From assembly GCA_964650645.1 (NCBI GenBank), contig CAZYUH010000001.1, positions 639,202 to 703,201 of the forward strand: 64,000 bases of DNA. Reading direction: 5' to 3'. This DNA comes from an uncultured Candidatus Saccharibacteria bacterium. GTDB lineage: Bacteria > Patescibacteriota > Minisyncoccia > Phycocordibacterales > SBAW01. The notes beneath the pieces are model-generated. The model did not search any database, was not told the DNA's origin, and worked only from the letters and a program-made list of their open reading frames with translations. The translations under genes were made by a program, and so were the position numbers. Shown here piece by piece: positions 5,227 to 47,170 of this stretch (positions are counted from its first letter, which is position 1; every line of letters starts with the position of its first letter).

Positions 5227-6270
5227 TTATTTTACCAGCGAGAACGCGCCGTCCTTGCCGCGCTTGAAATACTTCTGGTTCTGCAGGTTGACCACTATGG
5301 TGCCCGGCTTCACGTGGCGCTCCTTGAGCACCGCGGCGATTATCTGGTCCTTGGTCATGGGGCCGCTCTTGCGCAGGGCCTCGCGGATGACGTCGCGCAC
5401 GACGCCAGTGGTGTAGCCCCACTCCTTGAGGGCGTACATGCCGCGGCCCACCAAGACGAAGCGGTCGTCCTTTATGAGCTCGTTGTGGGTGGTGGCCACG
5501 TGCGCCGCGCGGTTGAACATCTTCTCGATGAGGTTCGATACCTCGCGGAAATGGAGCGGCGAGCCGTGCTTCTTGACGGCGAGGTACGCGTAGTCGCGCA
5601 CGCCCTTGGTCTTCACGTTGGACGACGATGCCGGACCCCACTCGCCCAGCGGGTTCTTGCCGATGCCCTTGGAAATGGACAGCCAGCGGCGCAAGACCTC
5701 CTCGTTGCGGTGCTTGTCGTTGATGCTCTGGAGCTCCTTGAGGAAGCGGTCTATCATCTCGCCCTCAGGGATGAGGTCCTCGTCGGAGAGGCCGGCGTAG
5801 AGGTCCTTGAGCGCGTTCTCGACCTTCTGGGCGAGCTCGGGGTCCACGTACCAGCAGCGGTTGACCTCGTCGTCCTCCTTGCGGAACTTGAACGGGTCGC
5901 CGAGTACCAAAAGGAAGTAGATATGGTTCTGCATCGACTTGTCCTTGGTCATGAAATTGAGCAGGTCGTCCTCGCAGACGATGCCGCCCAGGCCGTCGAT
6001 GATGCGCTGGAGCTCCTCGAACGCCTCCTGCGCCGCCGCGAAGCCCGGGGACTTCTTGAGGCTCGCCAGCGCGTGGTTCTCTATCTGGCGGACGCGCTCG
6101 CGGGTGATGCCGTAGCGCTTGCCTATGGCCTCGAGCGTGACGCGCTCGGAGGAGGCGCCCAGGCCGAAGCGCGCCTCGAGCACGGTGCGGGAGCGCTCGG
6201 GAAGCGCCTGGAGGAGCTTCTTCACTATCGCCTTGGGCTTGAAGCCCGTTTTGTCCGCGGTAGATGCCAT
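5227..6270 (-). CDS. Putative transcription factor: sigma-70 region-4 HTH plus tandem HARE-HTH-like winged-helix domains
   Basis: N-terminus LEAIGKRYGITRERVRQIENHALASLKK is a sigma-70 region 4 signature; C-terminal DDRFVLVGRGMYALKEWGY and KDGAFSLVK resemble HARE-HTH (RNAP delta N-domain-like) motifs. Confidence 0.55.
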   Translation of the reverse strand: MASTADKTGFKPKAIVKKLLQALPERSRTVLEARFGLGASSERVTLEAIGKRYGITRERVRQIENHALASLKKSPGFAAAQEAFEELQRIIDGLGGIVCEDDLLNFMTKDKSMQNHIYFLLVLGDPFKFRKEDDEVNRCWYVDPELAQKVENALKDLYAGLSDEDLIPEGEMIDRFLKELQSINDKHRNEEVLRRWLSISKGIGKNPLGEWGPASSSNVKTKGVRDYAYLAVKKHGSPLHFREVSNLIEKMFNRAAHVATTHNELIKDDRFVLVGRGMYALKEWGYTTGVVRDVIREALRKSGPMTKDQIIAAVLKERHVKPGTIVVNLQNQKYFKRGKDGAFSLVK

Positions 6271-6288
6271 GGAATGTTTATGTGTTCT

Positions 6289-6317
6289 AATATATCACAG
6301 TCTAATAATGTGGTCAA
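6289..6317 (-). promoter_or_regulatory. Sigma70-like promoter for the 5227..6270 gene
   Basis: Minus strand reads TTGACC-17 nt-TATATT, about 18 nt upstream of the ATG at 6270. Confidence 0.45.
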
Positions 6318-6363
6318 ACCCTGTCAAACTTGAAAAAATGTTGCAAAGCTTGCTTTCGCGCCT

Positions 6364-17751: not shown

Positions 17752-20595
17752 TTAGTGTGCGCGTGAGCGATACTTGCGGCGGACATGCCCTACCCCGGCG
17801 TAGCCCAGGTAGCCCAGACACCCGGCCAGCGTCAGCCCCGATACAATGAGCCCGAGGTAAAACCAGCGCTGGGGCCAGAATTCTATCACCATTTCAATGT
17901 CATAGCTCCCGCCGGGGTTTTGGGTACAGCCCGCCAGTTTTTGGACTTCGCACAGCTCTGTCGTGTCTACGTACCACCCGTTTAGGAAGCCATTGAGCTT
18001 GTAATGGTACTCGTCTCCTACCCTGTCGGGCTTGGCAAACGGCCACCAGCTATCCAATCGCCCTTGCACTTTGGCATTGTTGAGCTCTAAGTACCACTTG
18101 TCGTGATAACTCTCGCTCATGCCCAGGAAGAACGGCGTTGTTGCACCCCTTATGTACACCAGCTTCTTGGTCGGGCTTATAAGATCAAAGGTGGTGGATG
18201 CGGGTTGCACAAGCTGAGCATCCGGCTCGCTTACTAGATAATAAGAGCTGGATATATCCGGAATCTCGACAAGTTTGAAATTATCGTAACGGTTGATATT
18301 ATTAGTTTTTACGTCCGTCTCTTTTGCATATACATACAAACTGAGAGTTGTAGCCCCTGCAGGGACTTTTATGGTACGGGTTAAAGTATGCCAGGCAGTA
18401 TCGGTTAGCGGCAGATTCTCACTATCAGATGTCTTAACTGGGTCGTTAAAGCCAATGTAATAGGAAGCGGATTTTGCATTAGAACTTTGATAGTCGAAGC
18501 TCAATAAATATGTGCTAGTTGCATTAATAGGGAGTTCTATAGAGATGCAAGCAGTATGTCGAGTTGCCTCAAGTTGTAGAGATTGAACGCCGTCTGTCTT
18601 GTTATGGGCATCCAATTTCATTCCTAAAATAGGCTTTTGGTCATAATTATGACAATCCCCAACTGCTTGCTGCCAAAAACCTCTCTCAAAAGACCCATTG
18701 GTAATTAAATTTTTAAATGTGTAATTTTTATTTGTATAAGTAAATTGGTTATCGATACCATTTAATAAAGTAGTGCTCGAATATATGGGTTCATTATCAA
18801 TAGATAGTTTGTCGAAATTATTTAATGCGTAAAGTATATTTTTATTGGCAGAGTATATGGTTGTAGTAGCAGTAATACTCGAACTTGCGGTTGATATATT
18901 TTGAAAATTGACATTCTCAAATAACTGGTCAACATATGTTGCTGAAGAGGTGGCATTAGCTTTATTGAATAAGTAGAAATAAAAACCATTATGCAGTTGA
19001 TTGTTAACAAAATTATACTTTTCATCTAGATTATTTTTAGATTCAAAAGAATACAAATAATCAAATGTAAATATATTTCGTATCGATCTTATGTTTTTAA
19101 AAATAAACAAATTTGGATCTAGATACATATTGTTGACACGTGTCCAGTTACTATCTTTTGTGAGAGCGTTTATCTGATTCTCTGATACAGGAGTTGATAT
19201 ACAGGTTATTACGTAACCGGCACTATTTAGCAACGATAACGCATCTTGAATATTATCTTCTGATATATGTTTAACTTCTATATCTTTTGAAAGAAAATGC
19301 TGATTTAAAGTAAAAAATTTTATTTGATCAAGTTCATTACATATGCCGCCATCAACCCAAATAACCATGCTGTGGTTAGGTATATTGTTTAGTGATTGAA
19401 CTAGATCAGTATCAGGTAATTTGGGTATAAGTAATTTATTATAAATTTCAGTAAGCATGAATCCACACCAACCAAAAATTATTATAGTAAGAAAAGATAA
19501 TGATATAAATTTCAACGTTCTTGACATTCTCGAAATTCCCAAACCTAGAATTATTACTGCAAGTATGGGGATATATAATTGCCACTTAAGAGGTGATCTA
19601 AAGGCCCATCCACCCGGAAGATTATTTAGAATTGATAATATTATGTTTGAACCAAAGTTATTTAATGCCAACCAATATAAAAGTAGTAATATTCCTAGAA
19701 ATAATCTTGAAAAGAAACCTTCTATATTTTTATTATTAGAGTAAAAAAATGCAATTATAAGTAAAATCTGAAAAGAAAAACCAAAAATAACAAAAATAAT
19801 CTTATACCCTGAATTATAGTAATCATAATCAGTGAGAACATCTCTAGACCAAGTAAATGTATTAACCAAACTACCCGAGTTTGCAAACCCAATAAATGAA
19901 TCAGTATTTGAAGAGTTTGCATTTATCGTAGATACTATGGAAGCTTTATTTAAAGCTTGTGTTGAATAAATGCTCAATATAAGAAAGGCACTCAACATTC
20001 CACAAATTACTAATGCTTTTATGGCACTTATTATTAGTTCTTTTCTAAAAGGATTGCTGTAGAGCCGTGTTACAAAGAAAATTGTCGCTATAAAAGTATT
20101 TACGATGAAAGTAAACGGATGAATTAATGAAACGATTAATCCAAAATAAGCTAAAATAAAGTAACGAGGGCTTTTTGTCTGAATATATTTTTTTAAAAGT
20201 ATTATTACAAAAGGCAACATTGAGGCGCCTAAAATTAATCCTATTTTCGAAATATTTGCTAGAAATATCGGGTTAATAACATAAAATAAACTCAACAAAA
20301 AACGTGTATGAATATCTATTTTTTTAAAAAAAGATAATGCAAAATATGCAGAACATGCCGCAATCACAAGCGCTAGAAATAAGTATAAATAAGATACACC
20401 AAGGTTTCCAAGAATTGGATAAAATATAAGCAAAAAAAGCCTTATTGGTAGTCGAAAAACGCCATCCAAATTAATAGCTCCATTTTGGGAAGACCAAAGA
20501 TAGAATGTTTTTAGAAAATATATCCATGCTTCAAATGGAAACCCAAAATCACCGTTAGCTAGAAATCCTAAATTAAATATATTACCGAAGTACAT
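17752..20595 (-). CDS. Large polytopic membrane protein (YfhO/GT-C-like N-terminal 13 TM region + ~450-aa extracytoplasmic domain + C-terminal TM anchor), mosaic composition
   Basis: 947 aa; N-terminal 2/3 encoded by AT-rich DNA, C-terminal third by GC-rich DNA; C-terminal domain looks like a carbohydrate-binding/jelly-roll domain. Confidence 0.5.
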   Translation of the reverse strand: MYFGNIFNLGFLANGDFGFPFEAWIYFLKTFYLWSSQNGAINLDGVFRLPIRLFLLIFYPILGNLGVSYLYLFLALVIAACSAYFALSFFKKIDIHTRFLLSLFYVINPIFLANISKIGLILGASMLPFVIILLKKYIQTKSPRYFILAYFGLIVSLIHPFTFIVNTFIATIFFVTRLYSNPFRKELIISAIKALVICGMLSAFLILSIYSTQALNKASIVSTINANSSNTDSFIGFANSGSLVNTFTWSRDVLTDYDYYNSGYKIIFVIFGFSFQILLIIAFFYSNNKNIEGFFSRLFLGILLLLYWLALNNFGSNIILSILNNLPGGWAFRSPLKWQLYIPILAVIILGLGISRMSRTLKFISLSFLTIIIFGWCGFMLTEIYNKLLIPKLPDTDLVQSLNNIPNHSMVIWVDGGICNELDQIKFFTLNQHFLSKDIEVKHISEDNIQDALSLLNSAGYVITCISTPVSENQINALTKDSNWTRVNNMYLDPNLFIFKNIRSIRNIFTFDYLYSFESKNNLDEKYNFVNNQLHNGFYFYLFNKANATSSATYVDQLFENVNFQNISTASSSITATTTIYSANKNILYALNNFDKLSIDNEPIYSSTTLLNGIDNQFTYTNKNYTFKNLITNGSFERGFWQQAVGDCHNYDQKPILGMKLDAHNKTDGVQSLQLEATRHTACISIELPINATSTYLLSFDYQSSNAKSASYYIGFNDPVKTSDSENLPLTDTAWHTLTRTIKVPAGATTLSLYVYAKETDVKTNNINRYDNFKLVEIPDISSSYYLVSEPDAQLVQPASTTFDLISPTKKLVYIRGATTPFFLGMSESYHDKWYLELNNAKVQGRLDSWWPFAKPDRVGDEYHYKLNGFLNGWYVDTTELCEVQKLAGCTQNPGGSYDIEMVIEFWPQRWFYLGLIVSGLTLAGCLGYLGYAGVGHVRRKYRSRAH

Positions 20596-20597
20596 AC

Positions 20598-21665
20598 CTA
20601 TTTATTGTTAAAAGATATGAGGTTCTGAATATAAATTTTAGATATATCTAGGATCGCCTCATCCTTTTGACCCAGAGATTTCAAAAGCTGTGTACATTTA
20701 TTATCATAAGAAATAGGGATATATTTGACACCACTTAAGGCAGCTAGGAGCATCCCATGATACTGAGGCAAGATACAAACAAGACTTTCCTTATTGTTTC
20801 GTAAAAATAAATAAAAACTAATTGGATTGCCGCTAAAATTTTTTATTATAATTCGATCAGTATTTAATAAGTTTGCGTGTAATTTTTGGAACTCAAGCAC
20901 ATCTGAATACATACTATTTTTAAAACTTGGATGCAGAGCTAGAAGTAAAAAATTATCAGTGCTTTTATATTGAATAAACTTTTCAATTACTGCAACGTAA
21001 TTAGAAATTTCAGTTGTACTATTACCTCGATAACTAACAATATAATTAATTTGTTTAGGATCTATTGGAAACAGTGATTTAGCCTCGACCTTATAAGCTT
21101 CGAGGTTCAAATTATTTAACAAAAAGGCAATATCTTGAGTTAGAACAACTTTCCGTTTAAAACCTAAACCAGAAAATGAATAGTATGTTTCTTCATCTCT
21201 TGCATAAATTTTATTTGACGCAAGTCCAGAAATAAATGCACCGAAGTGGCCAATCATTCCTGTCGACTTATAATATCCAACGCCAATAAGATACACTTCT
21301 TTTCTAAGCACGAATCGCGCTGCAAGTAATAAAAAGGAAAGTATTAAAACTTTTAAATTGAAATCCAGCCCCCAGAGTCCACCTCCTCCGATTATAGTTC
21401 TTTTGCTTACAAATAAAGCCTTTAGGACTCCCATTATCGAAGGCTTAATCAAACGAGCTTCTTCAAACGAATGGTGAGAATCGGAATAAATTTCACTATT
21501 TAAATAAATAAATTGTGTATTTTTTATATTTCTTGATTTGAAATAATTTAGCAAAACTTCTAGAATTAGCTCATCTCCCATATTTCCACCACCATAAAAA
21601 CCAAACAAAAAAGAATTGGAAAAATCAAGCTTATCTAATTCTAATTTTAATTTTCTTGTTTCCAT
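20598..21665 (-). CDS. Polysaccharide pyruvyl transferase family protein
   Basis: FYGGGNMGDELILEVLL ... IIGGGGLW motifs typical of PF04230 (CsaB/WcaK-like). Confidence 0.7.
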   Translation of the reverse strand: METRKLKLELDKLDFSNSFLFGFYGGGNMGDELILEVLLNYFKSRNIKNTQFIYLNSEIYSDSHHSFEEARLIKPSIMGVLKALFVSKRTIIGGGGLWGLDFNLKVLILSFLLLAARFVLRKEVYLIGVGYYKSTGMIGHFGAFISGLASNKIYARDEETYYSFSGLGFKRKVVLTQDIAFLLNNLNLEAYKVEAKSLFPIDPKQINYIVSYRGNSTTEISNYVAVIEKFIQYKSTDNFLLLALHPSFKNSMYSDVLEFQKLHANLLNTDRIIIKNFSGNPISFYLFLRNNKESLVCILPQYHGMLLAALSGVKYIPISYDNKCTQLLKSLGQKDEAILDISKIYIQNLISFNNK

Positions 21666-21666
21666 A

Positions 21667-22518
21667 TTAACAACTTACTCTTGCCCACAGTTTCGTTTTT
21701 TTTATAAAATTAAAAAAATAATTTTTTTGTTCCGCATTAATAAAACTGTCTAGTAAAAAAGAAAGCAAAGTATATGCATACATTCCAATCTTGTTGGGCG
21801 GCGAGTATTTTCTTAAATACTCCATCCGTGACTGAAACATTAATTTTGTTTTGATTTTAAAATACTGATCCGTACTATTTTTATGTTTTCTGTATTTATA
21901 TAAATATTCAGGCAAATTGGCTCCTTGTTTACCAGCCATTATAAATCTTAAAAACATATCTACATCTTCAATGTAATCTTTGTCATCACGATACGCTCCG
22001 ATTTCAAGAACATCACTTTTTCTAAACATTATTGTTGGATGAAGAAAAGGGTAATGAAAAAAATATAACTTAGATATAACATGTGGTTCAATTGGAAACT
22101 CAATGGAAGCAAGCTCTATATTGCTTTCATTAATAATAATCGCAAAAGTGCCAACAAGGGATAAGGCAGGATTCTTGGATAAATATAGATATTGTTTTTC
22201 GAGTCTGTCAGGTGTCGAGATATCGTCCCCATCCATACGCGCAATTATTTCACCCCTAGCTATACTTAGCCCTTTATTTAAATTTTTTGCGATTCCTATA
22301 CGTTCAGTATTTTTTATATATATAATTCGCGGGTCAAATAAATAACGTTTTATAATTTTTTCAGACTCATCAGTGGATGCATCATCAATAATAATGAATT
22401 CAAAATCAGAGTACGATTGATTCAAAATACTTTCAATTGATTCACGTAAAAAAGCCTCGGCATTTCTAAAAGGCATTACTACAGATATTTTAGGTTGTTT
22501 AGTCATATGATTTTGCAA
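21667..22518 (-). CDS. Glycosyltransferase family 2
   Basis: ISVVMPFRN...IIIDDASTDES...MDGDDIS (DxD) GT-A signature; true start may be the Met at 22506. Confidence 0.75.
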   Translation of the reverse strand: MQNHMTKQPKISVVMPFRNAEAFLRESIESILNQSYSDFEFIIIDDASTDESEKIIKRYLFDPRIIYIKNTERIGIAKNLNKGLSIARGEIIARMDGDDISTPDRLEKQYLYLSKNPALSLVGTFAIIINESNIELASIEFPIEPHVISKLYFFHYPFLHPTIMFRKSDVLEIGAYRDDKDYIEDVDMFLRFIMAGKQGANLPEYLYKYRKHKNSTDQYFKIKTKLMFQSRMEYLRKYSPPNKIGMYAYTLLSFLLDSFINAEQKNYFFNFIKKTKLWARVSC

Positions 22519-23326
22519 CTAGTATACCTATTCCACCAACTCCAAACTCACAAGTTTTCATAAAAAGCATGCCGACTCCAATGAAAAGATTTTTAAAAAG
22601 TTTAATCGGGCGCGAGAAGAAAAGGATGTAACGGTTAAAAATCCCCGCCGTTCTCTTGCTGGAATTGATAGCACCTTTGGAGTGGCAGAGATACGCCTTT
22701 GCCTGCTTGGCGTAATAATACTTTTTCTTAAGGGTTTTGCCGAGACTTATCTTCCCTTCGTTGTGATAAATTGCGTCGCTGATTCGCGCGATCTTCCCTA
22801 GCGCCTCTGCCCTGTCAGACAAGTCCCAGTCTTCGCCGGAAATCAGGGCTTCGTTATATCCCCCGACCTTATCAAAAGTTGCCTTGCTAAAGAATCGAGC
22901 GGCTTCAATGGCGTCTACCCCGACATAAAAGCTCCGCTCAAGCTTTTTGCACTGCGCCCAGAACCCCTCGCCAAACGACTCTTCGGGGATGATAATACCC
23001 GCCGCGTCCGCGCTTGAGGCCATTACCCGCACGCAGCTTCCGATAACGCTCTTGGAAACCACCATGTCGCTGTCAATAAACACGACATGCTCCCCTGACG
23101 CCTGCGCCGCGCCAAAATTGCGCTGTGCGCTGCGCTCTGGGCCTTTGGTGAATACCTTGTCCGTAAAGCGCCGCGCGATTGCCTGGGTGTCGTCGGCACT
23201 GCTGTTGTCTACCACGATTAGCTCGATGTTCTTGTATGACTGCTCCTTAATCGAGCGCAAGCACGCCTCTAAAAACTCCGCAGAGTTCTTTGTGGGCACG
23301 ATGACTGATACGAGCGGGTTAGGCAT
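22499..23326 (-). CDS. Glycosyltransferase family 2
   Basis: VSVIVPTKNSAEFL...LIVVDNSSADDT...IDSDM; start at MPNPLVSV (internal Met of ORF 22499..23398); overlaps downstream GT2 by 20 nt. Confidence 0.75.
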   Translation of the reverse strand: MPNPLVSVIVPTKNSAEFLEACLRSIKEQSYKNIELIVVDNSSADDTQAIARRFTDKVFTKGPERSAQRNFGAAQASGEHVVFIDSDMVVSKSVIGSCVRVMASSADAAGIIIPEESFGEGFWAQCKKLERSFYVGVDAIEAARFFSKATFDKVGGYNEALISGEDWDLSDRAEALGKIARISDAIYHNEGKISLGKTLKKKYYYAKQAKAYLCHSKGAINSSKRTAGIFNRYILFFSRPIKLFKNLFIGVGMLFMKTCEFGVGGIGILVAKSYD

Positions 23327-24425
23327 GGGCAAGAATGTCTTTGAACTGCGCGTAGCTTTTCTCGAAAGTAATGCCCTTGCTCCACTCCCAGGCGGCATGG
23401 CGCATGTGCTCGTAGCGCGGCTGGTCTTGTAGGAGCGCGGCCATGGACTCTGCCAGCGCCTCGGGGGTGTTTTTGGCGGTTACAAGCCCCGTGACGCCGT
23501 TTTGCACGCTGTCGCGCAGGCCGTCGCAATTATACACAACCGCCGGGGTGCCCTGGCTGTTTGCTTCGGTCACGACAAGCCCCCACCCTTCCTTGACTGA
23601 CGCGACCGGCAAGATATGCGACTTTTGGAGCAATTCTACTTTTTTATCTCCGCTTACCTTCCCCAGGCACTCGATGCTGTCTTTGTAGGGCGATTGCTGT
23701 ATGTGCCGGGCGACGCGCGCGGCGTATGCGCCGTCGCCTGCGCCCGCGATAATGAGCCTTGCAGTAGGCACCGAGCGCTTGAGCATCTCGAAGGCCCGCA
23801 CGATATGCGCGGTGCGCTTCATGGGCCGTATCGCGCCCAGCGCGAGGATGGTCGGGTGGGGATACTTTTGTATGCTAAGGCTTGCGACCGGCGTGAGCTC
23901 TATCCCTTCGCTTATGATGCTGATGTGCTCGGGCTTAAAGCCGTGGCGCATGAGGTCTTTTTTGGTGCTTTCTGATACGGTAACGACTTCCTGCCCGCCG
24001 AGCGCCAGCACGCGCAGGTAGAGGGGCTCCAGCAGGTAGCCAACAAGCGACGCCGGAGCCCATAGCTGATAGAACCATATTTCCCTGCATAATTGATGAA
24101 CGAACAGAATAACCCTTTGTTTTGCGTATAGTTTGGCGAAAAACGGGATGGTGTTTACCTCGTCTATGACGACATCGGGCCAGCCCTGCAGGTGCTTTTT
24201 GTAGTAGCGGTACGCCCGCCAGTACACGCTGTAGCGCCCGCCGAGCCTGATTATAGTGAAGCCGTTGCGCTCTTCCCTTTCAGCGCTGCCCTCGAATCCG
24301 CCCACTATGAAGCGCACCTCGTGGCTGTCTTTGGCAAGGCGCTTTGCCAGCTCCTCGTTGACCACCTCGGCGCCGCCCGCCAGTGGATGGCGCATGTCTT
24401 TCCATGTCAGCCAGAGTATCTTCAT
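23319..24425 (-). CDS. Glycosyltransferase family 4 (GT-B)
   Basis: MKILWLTW...GGAEV N-terminus and C-terminal EGWGLVVTEANSQGTPAVV motif; ATGA overlap with upstream gene at 24422-24425. Confidence 0.75.
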   Translation of the reverse strand: MKILWLTWKDMRHPLAGGAEVVNEELAKRLAKDSHEVRFIVGGFEGSAEREERNGFTIIRLGGRYSVYWRAYRYYKKHLQGWPDVVIDEVNTIPFFAKLYAKQRVILFVHQLCREIWFYQLWAPASLVGYLLEPLYLRVLALGGQEVVTVSESTKKDLMRHGFKPEHISIISEGIELTPVASLSIQKYPHPTILALGAIRPMKRTAHIVRAFEMLKRSVPTARLIIAGAGDGAYAARVARHIQQSPYKDSIECLGKVSGDKKVELLQKSHILPVASVKEGWGLVVTEANSQGTPAVVYNCDGLRDSVQNGVTGLVTAKNTPEALAESMAALLQDQPRYEHMRHAAWEWSKGITFEKSYAQFKDILAHA

Positions 24426-42705: not shown

Positions 42706-43548
42706 TTAATGGTGGTGCTCCTTCATGCCCGCGTCCATAGCATGGGCATTCTGCCCGCCCGCGTGCATGCGCGCGTCCATAAACTGCATCATAACAGCAT
42801 TAAACAGATCGGGCTCTACCGCGGCGAACGACGCCTCCGGCGCCGACGCGCCCGGCTTGGCAAGCTCCTTGTACGCGCTAAACGAGAGCGTGCTCGACGC
42901 GGCCCTCGTGCGGGCGACCCAGTCATCGAACTCCGCCTCGGGGACGGCGCGCGCGGCGAACTTCATCGAAGAGAAGCCGTCGCCGCTGTAGTTGGCCGAA
43001 ACGCCCGCGTACGTGCCGGGCTCGTTTGCCACCAAATTGAGCTCGGTGGCCATGCCGGTCATGGCGTATATCTGGCCGCCCAGCTGGGGTATCCAGAACG
43101 AGTTCATCGGCGCGTCCGCGGTAATGCTGAACTCAACCGGCCTGTCGACCGGCATCATGACGTAGTTCACCGTCGCCACCTCCTGCTCCGGATAAATGAA
43201 GAGCCATTTCCAGTCGAGCGCGACGACCTGCACTTGGAGCGCCGGGCCGCCCTCGAGCGCGCGGGTCGGGTCGAGCCGGTGCGTACTGCCCCACGTGAGC
43301 GCGCCCAGGACGAGTATTATTTCAAGCGGTATCACCCACCACACCAGTTCTTCGAGCCTGCCGTGCTCCCACTCGGGCGTGTATTCCGCCTTCTTGTTGG
43401 AAGCGCGGTACCTGTACGCGAAGAAGAACAGGAGGAAGTAGACCGGCACCGCCACTATGAGCATGAACTCGACCGCGTGGATCATGAGCGCGCGCTCGGC
43501 CACGCCGATGGCGCCCTTGGGATCGAGGACGGTGAACAGGCTCCACAT
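42706..43548 (-). CDS. cyoA: Cytochrome o ubiquinol oxidase subunit II
   Basis: LDPKG...[18 protein letters not shown]...[10 protein letters not shown] matches CyoA; lacks the CuA ligands as expected for quinol oxidases. Confidence 0.85.
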
Positions 43549-43627
43549 GGGTACATAATACCCTTGAATTTGAGCATTTCCCGGGGCTATTTATCAGACC
43601 ACAAATGTTTTATTAAGGAATTACTTT

Positions 43628-44068
43628 CTATTGCTCTTCGGGGCTTCTTGGCGCCTTACCTGTAAATATATAAGCTAACGCAACGCCAGCCAGCGGGATT
43701 GCACCCGCAATCAAACCTGCGCCGTCCTTTCCTTGCGCAATCAAATTAGCACCTTGCCATATACCAAAAAGTACAATAACCACAGCGGCAATTTGACCTG
43801 AAAGTCTATTAAAGCCATCGAACCACAGCAATCGACTCTCCATCCTCTGTCTGTGATTAGATTGGCCTACTGCCATTTCAACTATTGTTCTCCCACACCC
43901 AGGAGAAACTCTATCGTACTCGGCAAGCATCTCAGGAGGAGGTAAGGGGCCTTGGAAAATATTTCCAACTACCCTGGGGGCATGAGAAGGTATTGGCTGC
44001 CCTTCAACTGAAACCCGGTCGTCTTTTTTAGAGACGTCCTTATTTGCCCCGCTGGTGTCCTTCGCCAT
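43628..44068 (-). CDS. DUF2335-family membrane protein
   Basis: PPPEMLAEYDRVSPGCGRTIVEMAVGQSNHRQRMESR then two TM helices; encoded in a locally AT-rich islet. Confidence 0.55.
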   Translation of the reverse strand: MAKDTSGANKDVSKKDDRVSVEGQPIPSHAPRVVGNIFQGPLPPPEMLAEYDRVSPGCGRTIVEMAVGQSNHRQRMESRLLWFDGFNRLSGQIAAVVIVLFGIWQGANLIAQGKDGAGLIAGAIPLAGVALAYIFTGKAPRSPEEQ

Positions 44069-44384
44069 AACACTTCATCATATTAATAAGATCATCGCCA
44101 ACAGTTTGCCAGTCATTAAGAATAGCTAAAGTGTCTATGATATCGTCATCCTCCTTACCATACAGCTCGAAGTTATCCGATACTGGTCTGAAATTGAGGA
44201 GACTTCCGACCCCTTCTCTAAAAGAGGGTGCTTGATTTACAAAACGAAAGGTGCCCTCAAACCCAAATTTTCGGTCTGAGCTAACCTTAGCGTTATGGCG
44301 ACACCATACCACATCGTGGCTGCTAAACGCCGAAAAAACGCGGTTCTGCCCTCGTTGCATGAGGCCAATCATCCCATTCATCAC
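44040..44384 (-). CDS. Hypothetical protein (114 aa), 29-nt overlap with the downstream DUF2335 gene
   Basis: ORF in AT-rich islet; no recognised family; overlap suggests translational coupling. Confidence 0.35.
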   Translation of the reverse strand: MMNGMIGLMQRGQNRVFSAFSSHDVVWCRHNAKVSSDRKFGFEGTFRFVNQAPSFREGVGSLLNFRPVSDNFELYGKEDDDIIDTLAILNDWQTVGDDLINMMKCYGEGHQRGK

Positions 44385-44544
44385 ATTAAGTATAACTGAA
44401 GCACAAGCGGAAGTATACCCACAGGAAGAGCTTAAGAAATCGGAGTCAGGCCCCTCAAAATATCGAAAAAATGGTTCCTGGACGTATGAAGCAGTCCACC
44501 AAAGCGGATTTTAGATCGGTGGATCAGGGATTGGGCCATGCTTG

Positions 44545-45969
44545 TTAGAAAGCCAGTTTTACGACTTCCGAGTAAGCAAACAAAACGAGCCTGCTTGTAC
44601 CGCTGACGGAATAAGACGCGAGCATTCCCAGCATAAGAAGGAGCGACAGCATCTGCGAGGCGATGACGCCGCTGAACTTGTGCAGGAGATGCGCATGCCG
44701 GTAATCATCAGGCTTGTCCTGCCTGGCGAACAAGACGGCAAACCTGCGGTACGCAAAGACCGCGAAAGCCGTTATGCGGCCTACGAAATTGAAAATCCCG
44801 TATAGGGGGAATGCGAGCACGACCCAGTACGGCTCCTTCCTTTTCAGGGCAAGGTACGGGATGGACTCCAGGAAGACATACGTCGCGTATATCACAAGGG
44901 CTATGGCGGGATTGAAAATAAGCACGGGGAGCGCTACCACCCTCAGCGGATCAGTCAGGGTTACGAGCACAGCATTGTAAAAGGCATCGTATTTCAGCGT
45001 CCAGGGAATATTCTTCCTGATCAGGAGTCTTAGATAGTTCAGGAAGTTGCTGTACATGCCCGGGTTCCATCCGTACACCCTCTGCTTAAATAGGGACGGC
45101 AGGGTGTCGGGCACCTCGGTCTCCACGAGGGAATCCACGATCACCACCCCCCTGTTGTCCGCGGCAAGATGGATAAGCAGGGTGCGCTGCAGGTCTTCAC
45201 CGCAGAATTCGCCGGTATGGATCTCTATCTGGCGCTTGAGCTCCCCCGTCTTGAACAGGCCGATTGCGCCGGATATGTTCTGGACGGTGGCCCTTGCGTT
45301 ATGGAACACCTTCCCGATATCCATGCTCTTCCTGTACTCATGCGCCTGGATGAGCGTCACCCAATTGGTTGTCTTCGGAAGGACCCTGAAAGCGATCCCG
45401 CCGTATACCTCTCCCAGCGGATCGGTCGGGAAGGTCGCGCTGCCGATCAGGACGTCATCGTCCATGATCAGGCAGTACGGCGTGGCTACCTCCGCCAAGG
45501 CGACGTTTATCGCGGACACCTTGCCGATCGGCTCCTTGCTTTCGATAAGGCGCACACCCTCGTACCGGCGCACCAGACCGCACGTATCGTCCGTGGATCC
45601 GTTCGACGAAACGATTATCTGCTCCGGATTGAACCGCCTGAGCAGGCCATCGAGCGTGGCGGGAAGCACGCCCGCTCCGTTATAGGTCGGTATAACGATA
45701 GTTATCTTTTCCAGCTCCTCTTTTCCCGTATAAAAATCATCCCTCAGGAAGGTCTCGAGCGCCATCTTGAACGCGTCCACGCAGAACAGGGGCACAAGCA
45801 CGAACAGGGCCGAATACCCGAAGCGCAGGCTCTCGAATCCATTGGCGATAAACACCCCGTATGAAACGACCCACGCAAAAAGACCGAGCAGGGTAAGCTG
45901 TATTACAACCCGCTCGTTTATATAGCCCTGGAGGCCTGCATGGATGAATTCTCTGGACCGTTTAAGCAT
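44545..45969 (-). CDS. Membrane-embedded processive family-2 glycosyltransferase (cellulose/PNAG/hyaluronan-synthase-like)
   Basis: 2 N-terminal TM, IVIPTYNG, MDDDVL (DxD), QRVYGW (QxxRW variant), 4 C-terminal TM; start moved to second Met (45969) because a TTGACA-16-TAAAAT promoter overlaps the first ATG at 45999. Confidence 0.65.
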   Translation of the reverse strand: MLKRSREFIHAGLQGYINERVVIQLTLLGLFAWVVSYGVFIANGFESLRFGYSALFVLVPLFCVDAFKMALETFLRDDFYTGKEELEKITIVIPTYNGAGVLPATLDGLLRRFNPEQIIVSSNGSTDDTCGLVRRYEGVRLIESKEPIGKVSAINVALAEVATPYCLIMDDDVLIGSATFPTDPLGEVYGGIAFRVLPKTTNWVTLIQAHEYRKSMDIGKVFHNARATVQNISGAIGLFKTGELKRQIEIHTGEFCGEDLQRTLLIHLAADNRGVVIVDSLVETEVPDTLPSLFKQRVYGWNPGMYSNFLNYLRLLIRKNIPWTLKYDAFYNAVLVTLTDPLRVVALPVLIFNPAIALVIYATYVFLESIPYLALKRKEPYWVVLAFPLYGIFNFVGRITAFAVFAYRRFAVLFARQDKPDDYRHAHLLHKFSGVIASQMLSLLLMLGMLASYSVSGTSRLVLFAYSEVVKLAF

Positions 45970-46023: not shown

Positions 46024-46051
46024 AACACAAAAGAAATCCGCCGAAGCGGAT
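46024..46051 (-). terminator. Rho-independent terminator for the upstream hypothetical gene
   Basis: Minus strand AATCCGC-TTCG-GCGGATT followed by TCTTTTGTG. Confidence 0.5.
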
Positions 46052-46081
46052 TCCCGTTCGGCGGATGCTGCTGGACGCGCC

Positions 46082-46555: not shown

Positions 46556-46892
46556 CGCGCGCCTATCTGGATATACAGCCGTCCACTTTATGGTCACAAG
46601 TTCGTTTGCGCCGCCACGCAAACGCCGCGTCCACCTAGCGCCTGCCGCAAAGCGGCATCGGCGCTTGCCTCCGGCACCGGATGAAAGGCAAAGCAGTTTG
46701 CCTTTCATCCCCGCCTCGCGGTTTTGCAAGTGCAAAACATCGCTGCGGCCGTCCACTTTGTGGTCACAAGTCGAATTTTTTCGTCAAAAAATTCGCTCGC
46801 GACCCCGGCTCGCCGTCCCGCCAGTGCGGGACATGGCTGCGCCTTCCACAAAACCAGAAAACCTGCCTCAAGGCAGGTATTTCTGTGTTTTG
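46556..46892. repeat. tRNA-linked hairpin-array element, locus C (longest copy)
   Basis: Two ccgtccacttt(g/a)tggtcacaag units each followed by a hairpin, plus a GGATGAAAGGCAAA-GCAG-TTTGCCTTTCATCC perfect 14-bp stem, a gtttgcgccgccacgcaaac hairpin and a GAATTTTTT-CGTC-AAAAAATTC hairpin; shares cgcgaccccggctcgccgtcccgccagtgcgggacatggctgcgccttccac with locus A; terminal cctgcctcaaggcagg+T-tract. Confidence 0.6.
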
Positions 46893-46965
46893 TGGACCCT
46901 ACCGGGATCGAACCGGTCACCTCCTCATTGCAAATGAGGCGCTCTACCAGATGAGCTAAGGGCCC
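46893..46965 (-). tRNA. tRNA-Ala (anticodon TGC)
   Basis: Minus strand GGGCCCTTAGCTCATCTGGTAGAGCGCCTCATTTGCAATGAGGAGGTGACCGGTTCGATCCCGGTAGGGTCCA; G3:U70. Confidence 0.85.
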
Positions 46966-47083: not shown

Positions 47084-47170
47084 ATGACGATATGCAGCAG
47101 CAGGATGTGCGTGCTCGCCGCCTATTGCGCGATAGCCTTCTTGGGAGCTATCGTGCTGGGCGTAGTATAA
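47084..47170 (+). CDS. Candidate 28-aa hydrophobic Cys-containing small protein (MTICSSRMCVLAAYCAIAFLGAIVLGVV)
   Basis: GGAG 9 nt upstream of the ATG, single TM helix, followed directly by a bidirectional terminator; below the ORF-track size cutoff. Confidence 0.25.
   Translation: MTICSSRMCVLAAYCAIAFLGAIVLGVV

Follow-up and report, generated by a model that had tools for sequence, protein, structure and literature searches.

A two-gene cassette in a bacterial contig couples a DUF2335 membrane protein to a small acidic protein of a large, uncurated family. The cassette lies in a stretch of 64,000 nucleotides (nt), called the window below, that covers positions 639,202 to 703,201 of contig CAZYUH010000001.1 from an uncultured Candidatus Saccharibacteria bacterium (assembly GCA_964650645.1). 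The upstream gene, open reading frame A (ORF-A), encodes 114 amino acids (aa), and the downstream gene, ORF-B, encodes the DUF2335 protein. Members of the ORF-A family are near-obligate upstream neighbors of DUF2335 genes, in a fixed order, in many phyla and in temperate phages. The pair may be a membrane-effector module similar to toxin-antitoxin (TA) or abortive-infection (Abi) systems, in which the effector is held by its acidic partner; we assign this reading a probability of roughly 0.38. DUF2335 thereby changes from an anonymous domain into one half of a defined two-component system for which a cheap experimental test exists. As a candidate for a new toxin-antitoxin or phage-moron family the pair is clearly delimited, though not of a kind that would transform a field.

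Annotations of DUF2335 run to thousands of genomes and phages, among them prophages of Shiga toxin-producing Escherichia coli (STEC), and the domain essentially always has a small partner gene upstream. A scan of 185,579 species-representative genomes, seeded on DUF2335 alone, gave 80 loci with 27-54% identity in Acidobacteriota, several classes of the Candidate Phyla Radiation (CPR, or Patescibacteria), Chloroflexota, Planctomycetota, Cyanobacteria, Firmicutes, Bacteroidota, and Proteobacteria. Upstream DNA is present at 78 of them, and at about 70 of these the region directly upstream matches, in the same orientation and at E<1e-3, a hidden Markov model (HMM) built for the ORF-A family, with three more weak matches. 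The partner has a callable start at 67 of the matched loci. By inspection, all but one of the remaining loci have an upstream ORF that bears a degenerate form of the family motif, giving a total of about 77 of 78. The position of the partner stop codon ranges from 97 nt within the DUF2335 ORF, counted from its first possible start, to 28 nt before that start.

The same arrangement is found when the search begins from ORF-A and when viruses are considered. All four ORF-A homologues whose genomic context was examined (P0004, P0005, P0010, and P0013) lie directly upstream of a DUF2335 gene and overlap it by 17-38 nt. The only distant DUF2335 match of the indexed search (P0003) follows a small ORF bearing 'DLKAIESDWKEVDNDL'. 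In Pseudomonas phage MD8, Streptococcus prophage Javan433, and Leptospira phage LE1, an overlapping motif-bearing gene of 68-85 aa precedes DUF2335. IMG/VR contains 98 viral contigs with a DUF2335 relative; the partner is detectable by HMM in 46 of the 75 testable contigs, and most of the others have motif-bearing upstream ORFs. Overall, the order and overlap are repeated in well over 100 loci. The window pair follows the pattern, as the two genes are on the same strand with the partner immediately upstream of DUF2335 and overlapping it. The positions of the two ORFs and their overlap of 29 nt, proposed in an initial annotation made from the sequence alone, are borne out, and the overlap presumably implies translational coupling.

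ORF-A is, by sequence, a member of this partner family, a new assignment to a family with no model in Pfam or NCBIfam. The initial annotation had considered it a protein of no recognizable family, which does not hold. ORF-A itself matches no Pfam, NCBIfam, or PADLOC model, and in a word-index protein search the sole match was the identical protein in three Logan run assemblies. Against 1.84 billion representatives, an exhaustive search with phmmer gave 11 small homologues (72-123 aa, E=2e-7 to 8e-4) that have in common with ORF-A the core PSFxxG..SLLD ... D..A(L/I)..DWxxVGxD(L/I)xxA..Y. The family is defined here by a core of about 65 aa with the motifs PSFxxG...LD and D..A(L/I)..DWxxVGxD(L/I)xxA. 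An independent HMM was built from 65 partners found by DUF2335 adjacency alone, with ORF-A and its phmmer relatives excluded. This HMM matches ORF-A (E=2.7e-11, 38.6 bits) and no other ORF among the 797 in the window. A profile search of a 5.8-billion-protein collection found at least 934 members, typically of 72 aa, all described as hypothetical and none with a Pfam domain; likewise, 78 members had no matches in Pfam and NCBIfam. The family is curated by no database, and its members are often given wrong starts by gene callers. ORF-A can start at a GTG (114 aa) or at an ATG at 44381 (113 aa).

The conserved part of ORF-A is its C-terminal core, with a predicted pI (isoelectric point) of 4.5. 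ORF-A keeps the invariant and near-invariant family residues G58, D64, D84, D91, W92, G96, and D98. The preceding extension of 44 aa is found only in a CPR-type subfamily (P0004, P0005, and P0011), with the pattern N[RD][VI]FS ... WCx[EKR]H. AlphaFold2 (AF2) predicts that the extension is disordered, with a pLDDT (predicted local distance difference test) score below 50 for residues 1-23. The overall pLDDT is 54.8 with 11 sequences and 61.9 with 78 sequences. A helix at 55-63 and a long C-terminal helix at 80-112 are predicted, and the latter, which bears the DW-VG-D motif, has a pLDDT of 85-90. Structure prediction, which the initial annotation had proposed for this protein, gave a confident C-terminal helix, while it gave no compact fold, and Foldseek found no match to the model in the PDB. 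Confident helices without a compact fold would fit a partner that folds on binding. Profile searches of both families against PDB sequences gave nothing meaningful, and no relative of ORF-A with a solved structure was found.

ORF-B is a DUF2335 protein over nearly its full length. It matches Pfam PF10097 (E=7e-11, aa 43-83, 42.3 bits, cutoff 25) and PHROG family phrog_3996 (E=1.5e-25, aa 33-144), which is in the category 'moron, auxiliary metabolic gene and host takeover'. This category, together with copies in phages, prophages, and plasmid-prophages, agrees with the earlier statement that DUF2335 proteins are phage-associated. The family-invariant residues P43, I62, H72, R73, and E77 are present in the domain, which is presumably cytoplasmic. 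Kyte-Doolittle plots with a 19-residue window have peaks at residues 85-95 and 115-120. The two transmembrane (TM) helices are linked by a short QGKDGAG loop, an arrangement conserved in all aligned homologues, and an N-in/C-in topology is inferred. Since every family-invariant residue is kept, both ORF-A and ORF-B look functional.

The name DUF2335 needs care in the literature. The Tle1 family is, as we take it, DUF2235. A Tle1-like lipase or phospholipase domain is named 'DUF2335' in papers on type VI and type IV secretion systems (bioRxiv 10.1101/2023.07.16.549128; PMC6267618; PMC13600407). The label 'DUF2335 phospholipase' is almost certainly a propagated slip for DUF2235 and has no relation to PF10097.

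The composition of the islet marks it as foreign DNA. It extends from the base immediately upstream of the cyoA start codon to slightly beyond the stop codon of a glycosyltransferase family 2 (GT2) gene. The GC (guanine plus cytosine) content in 300-nt windows is 0.44-0.48 over 43550-44600 and 0.63-0.67 on each side, with sharp steps at 43550, one base past the cyoA start codon, and at about 44560-44600, at the GT2 stop codon. The cassette has a GC content of 0.472, compared to 0.633±0.032 for backbone windows of equal length (z=-5.0). At third codon positions the GC content (GC3) is 0.41 in ORF-B and 0.47 in ORF-A, compared to 0.86-0.91 in cyoA and cyoB and a mean of 0.834±0.070 in 40 backbone ORFs. 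These values are as expected of horizontally acquired DNA, and the visibly lower GC noted earlier is a significant deviation. Pfam matches place cyoA and cyoB on one side and the GT2 glycosyltransferase on the other, also as first annotated. The GC3 is 0.73 in the GT2 gene and 0.70-0.77 in the next ORF (224 aa), so that both are mildly atypical, within about 1-2 standard deviations of the backbone, and the clearly foreign DNA is the two-gene cassette of about 1 kb alone. For this reason a single island covering the whole of 43.5-47 kb was rejected. GC, GC3, and the 29-nt overlap together agree with the initial view of a compositionally foreign islet with a tightly coupled two-gene accessory module, and it is highly probable that the islet is a foreign, conserved module of two genes.

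The islet lacks the features of a classical genomic island. Window ORFs and Pfam matches include no integrase near the islet and no phage genes near the cassette, and a repeat search found no convincing terminal repeats around it. A tRNA-Ala(TGC) gene at 46892-46965, 2.3 kb from the islet, is not obviously involved, and Rfam matches only this tRNA across the region. The end of the tRNA gene is not repeated at the islet, where only a 12-nt near-repeat was found (43553 and 46973), probably by chance. A tRNA-linked island was rejected, as there is no integrase, attachment-site repeat, or terminal repeat. Direct-repeat family D1 pairs the hairpin at 44489-44524, between the GT2 stop codon and ORF-A, with a terminator-like hairpin at 46031-46066; the former is the probable end of the GT2 transcript and upstream border of the cassette. 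The sequence TTAAT(R)TGATGAA is common to 44074-44086, just upstream of the ORF-B start, and 44377-44389, at the ORF-A start, on the minus strand. The two copies are identical at 12 of 13 positions (direct-repeat family D3), with a further 18-nt similarity nearby (D1). This shared sequence may be due to chance or to a common translation-initiation context.

The cassette most resembles those of CPR bacteria. The best relatives of ORF-B are in metagenome-assembled genomes (MAGs) of Parcubacteria (46%), Sungbacteria (42%), Kaiserbacteria, and Saccharibacteria, and the best relatives of ORF-A are the partners at the same Sungbacteria and Saccharibacteria loci (homologue P0011 is identical to the partner at locus L014, and P0005 is nearly identical to that at L016). 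The cassette GC content in these relatives is 0.41-0.50, compared to 0.47 in the window. None of 80 metagenomic loci with CyoA relatives has the cassette, the GT2 gene, or the 224-aa ORF within 8 kb, and all of these relatives are only 44-61% identical in CyoA. The nearest relative at the orthologous cyo site is 61% (CyoA) and 70% (CyoB) identical. The absence from these loci is consistent with acquisition, weakly so given such distant relatives. Homologues in a conserved position beside cyo genes of related genomes, which the initial annotation had named as a refutation of its reading, were not observed in these 80 loci. Overall, horizontal acquisition of the window islet as a self-contained module appears very likely.

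Cassettes of this family elsewhere are patchily distributed and often mobile. Their GC content is below that of the flanks in 60 of 67 loci, by a mean of 5.8 points; the window cassette is 15.6 points lower. Of the copies in viral contigs, 24% lie within 5% of a contig end, compared to 10% expected. Phage and prophage examples occupy moron positions or sites close to att. The cassette is beside the integrase in phage MD8, behind the holin and lysin at the end of Streptococcus Javan prophages, and also on Leptospira plasmid-prophages. In E. coli it is found in 211 of 5426 complete genomes (3.9%), always in a prophage and beside the integrase next to potC, and the carriers include O26, O103, and O121 STEC. 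The E. coli version (L173:5670-6336, strain STEC310) consists of a 119-aa DUF2335 protein (5977-6336) and a partner of 73 aa (5670-5891), whose N-terminus is hydrophobic and resembles a signal peptide and whose 'ALRQDAAAIRGDFQKAM' motif is degenerate. This prophage cassette is a convenient experimental model.

The membrane gene is sometimes inactivated and sometimes overlooked. In a very abundant Acidobacteriaceae lineage (P0096, with the partner indexed in 445 blocks), the same 1-nt frameshift is found in DUF2335 in five of five contigs (L255-L259; about 8226-8659 in L255), and the partner is intact. The left flanks of this locus are of three kinds, with flagellar genes, an outer-membrane protein, or an MmeI-type restriction-modification enzyme, and ParD/HicAB genes are on the right. 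In a related lineage (P0116), DUF2335 is intact, its GTG start is missed by gene callers, and the Pfam annotation is lost. At L260:8226-8672 and L262, the callers use an internal ATG, giving products of 92-95 aa without a Pfam match, while the true GTG is 6-9 nt past the partner stop. Because gene callers choose an internal ATG over the GTG, many DUF2335 genes in public records are probably truncated and left unannotated.

The properties of the pair suggest that the two proteins could act together. Among 67 pairs the partner has a median pI of 4.6 (58 of 67 below 6), and the DUF2335 protein has a median pI of 9.7 (56 of 67 above 8). In a mirror-tree comparison, the pairwise identity matrices of the two families correlate with r=0.74, a value reached in none of 999 permutations; the two families co-evolve. 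All-against-all clustering of ORFs within 6 kb found no third conserved gene, as no neighbor cluster occurs in more than 7 of 80 loci.

A module similar to TA and Abi systems is suggested by the obligate position of an acidic soluble gene upstream of a basic protein ending in a two-TM hairpin, by translational coupling, and by the lack of an enzymatic domain or a third component. The patchy, phage-borne, low-GC distribution suggests the same, as do the occasional cases in which the membrane gene is inactivated and the partner is kept. The initial annotation had proposed a toxin/immunity, abortive-infection, or superinfection-exclusion module, and such a role is the best guess that the architecture allows. 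In the proposed mechanism, ORF-A and ORF-B would be co-transcribed and translationally coupled. ORF-A would be a small acidic cytoplasmic protein, and in ORF-B, a basic protein, a conserved cytoplasmic N-domain would precede a membrane hairpin of two helices. Binding of the long C-terminal ORF-A helix (DW-x2-VG-x-D) to the DUF2335 N-domain (PLPPPE..L..YE...PG..RI...HR...E) would stop the hairpin from oligomerizing or permeabilizing the membrane. The effector would be set free once the labile partner is lost or titrated, as might happen during phage infection or when the element is lost. In prophages the cassette would serve as a moron that protects or stabilizes the lysogen.

Several known systems resemble the DUF2335 pair in architecture. 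The CptA/CptB pair of E. coli (YgfX/SdhE) has the acidic soluble protein SdhE (88 aa) encoded upstream with a 20-nt overlap, and YgfX is an inner-membrane protein of 135 aa with two TM helices, similar to the two-TM layout of DUF2335. YgfX is the reported toxin of that pair, neutralized by SdhE. However, SdhE has a housekeeping role in flavinylation, and the TM helices of YgfX are N-terminal, while DUF2335 has a conserved cytoplasmic N-domain and then a C-terminal hairpin. The lambda RexA/RexB module is encoded by two prophage genes, with a cytoplasmic protein upstream of a membrane effector, and it aborts infection by membrane depolarization. Modules of this type are co-transcribed and expressed from moron or immunity regions, and gp30/gp31 of mycobacteriophage Sbash is an analogous two-gene prophage exclusion system. 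The DUF2335 pair shares with RexA/RexB the prophage location, the number of genes, and the order of cytoplasmic and membrane proteins. It differs in that RexA has 279 aa and RexB has four TM helices, and in that many DUF2335 cassettes are outside prophages.

Holins and type II TA systems offer more general parallels. Class II holins (two TM helices, N-in/C-in) with their antiholins also consist of a small hairpin protein whose lethal membrane activity is restrained by a partner. The MD8 DUF2335 protein matches Phage_holin_3_6 over the TM region with E=0.003 and 18 bits, below the cutoff of 28.4, which probably reflects TM composition. Holins lack the conserved cytoplasmic N-domain of about 90 aa, and unlike holins the DUF2335 cassette is outside the lysis cassette in most phages and also occurs in non-phage contexts. 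Type II TA systems are similar in their small overlapping genes with the acidic product upstream and the basic product downstream, and in their patchy distribution, low GC content, phage and plasmid carriage, and decay by toxin frameshift. In contrast, the DUF2335 partner has no ribbon-helix-helix, helix-turn-helix, or AbrB domain, and DUF2335 has no enzymatic toxin fold.

A number of observations weigh against an effector held by its partner. Comparison by hhalign gave a probability of 0.1% for each pair with YgfX and SdhE, indicating no homology, and values that are not significant for DUF2335 with RexB (10.9% over 34 columns) and for the partner with RexA (0.1%). Pfam and NCBIfam searches with 78 members and the AF2 model, which contains only helices, revealed no DNA-binding domain in the partner, and in this respect the family is not like type II antitoxins. 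ORF-A, ORF-B, the GT2 protein, and the 224-aa ORF had no match in PADLOC-DB v2.0.0 at E<=0.1. A literature search found nothing addressing DUF2335 function, other mentions of the domain being incidental, and PF10097, COG5346, and phrog_3996 gave nothing useful. The opposite charges may simply follow from the positive-inside rule for membrane proteins, and the mirror-tree signal may be due to co-inheritance and not physical contact. The nearest chromosomal neighbors are overwhelmingly housekeeping genes, with no enrichment for defense, TA, or mobile genes. Among 148 such neighbors, 174 Pfam families were counted, led by Hsp70 (4), RpoA (3), response regulators (3), Fic (3), and DEAD helicases (3), and no integrase, transposase, TA, or restriction-modification family is among the 25 most frequent. 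The suggestion that DUF2335 homologues would be enriched in defense islands is not borne out by this census or by PADLOC, which matches neither protein; the defense-type exceptions (L009, L255-L259) are anecdotal only. Also, the cassette is followed by dnaK in loci of three CPR classes (Parcubacteria, Kaiserbacteria, and Zambryskibacteria), and two loci each of CPR and Acidobacteriaceae have it immediately behind rpoA-rplQ. Such synteny has the appearance of stable vertical descent and would be compatible with a housekeeping or stress role as well.

These gene orders are an argument for a different, non-selfish function, in which a membrane-anchored protein and a small cytoplasmic regulator or chaperone form an accessory envelope-stress or proteostasis factor. 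Such a factor would be inherited vertically in some lineages with occasional transfer. Housekeeping neighbors and the lack of PADLOC matches also agree with this explanation. It is nevertheless doubtful, given the patchiness within a species such as E. coli, where every copy is in a prophage, the carriage by phages, a GC content systematically below that of the flanks, the frameshifted copies of one lineage, and the foreign composition of the window copy. The placement near dnaK and rpoA-rplQ represents either conserved synteny or a recurrent insertion site by highly expressed housekeeping operons. In detail, three CPR loci (L013, L015, and L062) have the cassette between the end of the rpoA-rplQ (and rpsI) operon and dnaK, and two Acidobacteriaceae MAGs (L073 and L075) have it directly 3' of rpoA-rplQ. 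Matches to PF10712 ('NAD-GH') at cassette loci are antisense to dnaK. A Fic_N+Fic gene is 200-250 nt downstream of the cassette in four Chloroflexota loci (L050, L053, L087, and L088) and one Saccharibacteria locus (L056).

The phage association could also indicate a non-toxic prophage moron, with DUF2335 in a superinfection-exclusion complex that blocks DNA entry or another envelope step of an incoming phage. The small partner would then be a cofactor or assembly factor and not an antitoxin, and the window copy would be a stranded remnant. The moron category of phrog_3996 points in this direction, as do the position beside the integrase in MD8 and the E. coli potC prophage, the position past the holin and lysin in Javan phages, and the excess of viral copies near contig ends. 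However, most genome copies are outside recognizable prophages and have housekeeping flanks, and streamlined CPR genomes hold copies in conserved synteny. Known exclusion proteins usually work by themselves and have no obligate acidic partner in the cytoplasm, and phage genes are absent around the window copy. Both the exclusion role and the cofactor-and-remnant interpretation of this copy are unlikely. Finally, the composition and the lack of a curated family for ORF-A might suggest that the ORFs arose by chance in AT-rich intergenic or promoter DNA in front of cyoA. This is refuted by the homology results, since ORF-B matches both Pfam and PHROG, ORF-A matches the independent HMM, all family-invariant residues and the widespread order and overlap are retained, and identical proteins are called in three independent run assemblies.

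Table 1. Features of the islet and its borders in the window
Feature	Position	Strand	Basis
Low-GC islet, core foreign segment	43549..44560	.	GC steps and cassette GC
ORF-A, 114 aa, acidic, soluble, DUF2335 partner family ('DW-x2-VG-x-D')	44040..44384	-	phmmer, independent HMM
ORF-A N-terminal extension, aa 1-44	44253..44384	-	Alignment, AF2
ORF-A conserved core, aa 45-114, FRFVNQAPSFREGVGSLLNF ... DTLAILNDWQTVGDDLINMMKCY	44043..44252	-	Alignments, AF2
Overlap of ORF-A 3' end and ORF-B 5' end, 29 nt	44040..44068	-	ORF coordinates
ORF-B, 146 aa, DUF2335 membrane protein	43628..44068	-	Pfam PF10097, phrog_3996
DUF2335 Pfam domain, aa 43-83, PPPEMLAEYDRVSPGCGRTIVEMAVGQSNHRQRMESRLLWF	43820..43942	-	Pfam, alignment
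Two-helix TM hairpin, about aa 92-112 and 116-138	43655..43795	-	Kyte-Doolittle
Hairpin between GT2 stop codon and ORF-A	44489..44524	-	Direct-repeat family D1
AT-rich spacer from ORF-B stop to cyoA start, 79 nt	43549..43627	-	Terminator scan
cyoA, 280 aa, abutting the islet	42706..43548	-	Pfam COX_ARM, COX2

The cyoA gene at the edge of the islet (Table 1) has an unusually short N-terminus. Just seven residues (MWSLFTV) precede the LDPKG motif of the window CyoA, and the signal peptide or anchor of its homologues is missing. All 50 homologues with a locatable (L/F)(D/N)PKG motif have at least 23 residues before it, with a median of about 30. In proteobacteria these residues form a lipoprotein signal peptide, and the closest relatives have a signal anchor in this place, such as MKRNYIAIAFLVITVVVAALFALLQNYTFQV-FDPKG at L093. 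In-frame stop codons are found 17-18 codons upstream of the window cyoA start, and the drop in GC begins exactly at the start codon (junction 43548/43549). We infer that cyoA lost its 5' end, with the promoter and signal sequence, through the insertion or a rearrangement that accompanied it. What is left of CyoA is about the length of mature E. coli CyoA, judging from the lipobox cysteine and from the established processing of the E. coli protein to its mature form.

The oxidase operon may be transcribed through the cassette. The terminator scan found no minus-strand terminator-like site between the ORF-B stop and the cyoA start, and the only listed hairpin there (43549-43563) is on the plus strand, so read-through from the cassette into the cyo operon is possible. 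In this genome a small and recent horizontal gene transfer event has apparently altered the 5' end and the transcriptional context of a cytochrome bo3-type oxidase operon. A broader scenario would make DUF2335 and its partner a new pan-bacterial membrane TA or Abi family spread by temperate phages, with a CPR-like (epibiont) donor of the window copy, loss of the cyoA signal peptide and promoter, and an oxidase operon dependent on read-through from the cassette. Taken as a whole, this scenario is improbable. The putative truncation of cyoA is judged against relatives that are at most 61% identical. A 28-aa hydrophobic ORF (MTICSSRMCVLAAYCAIAFLGAIVLGVV) with a GGGAG Shine-Dalgarno sequence is found at 47084-47170 (+), between the tRNA-Ala and a pterin dehydratase gene. 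It is similar to a signal anchor, with 'YCAIAFLG' compared to 'YIAIAFLV' in the L093 CyoA. The idea that it is the displaced and inverted 5' end of cyoA is speculative, as an anchor HMM ranks it no higher than other small ORFs.

Two further features lie elsewhere in the window. A much stronger low-GC island at 17752-23398 (-), with a GC content of 0.28-0.39 and a GC3 of 0.23-0.32, encodes a 947-aa CBM_4_9 protein, a polysaccharide pyruvyl transferase, and two GT2 glycosyltransferases, and PADLOC gave no match. This island probably represents a variable section, exchanged horizontally, of a gene cluster for exopolysaccharide or O antigen. At 46578-46771 there are two copies of a 24-nt repeat (GCCGTCCACTTTRTGGTCACAAGT), 96% identical and 170 nt apart, which Rfam does not match. 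The repeats flank a perfect palindrome at 46679-46710 with 14-nt arms, just downstream of the tRNA-Ala gene, and three Logan contigs of the region all begin near them. They may represent an element similar to repetitive extragenic palindromic (REP) sequences or miniature inverted-repeat transposable elements (MITEs).

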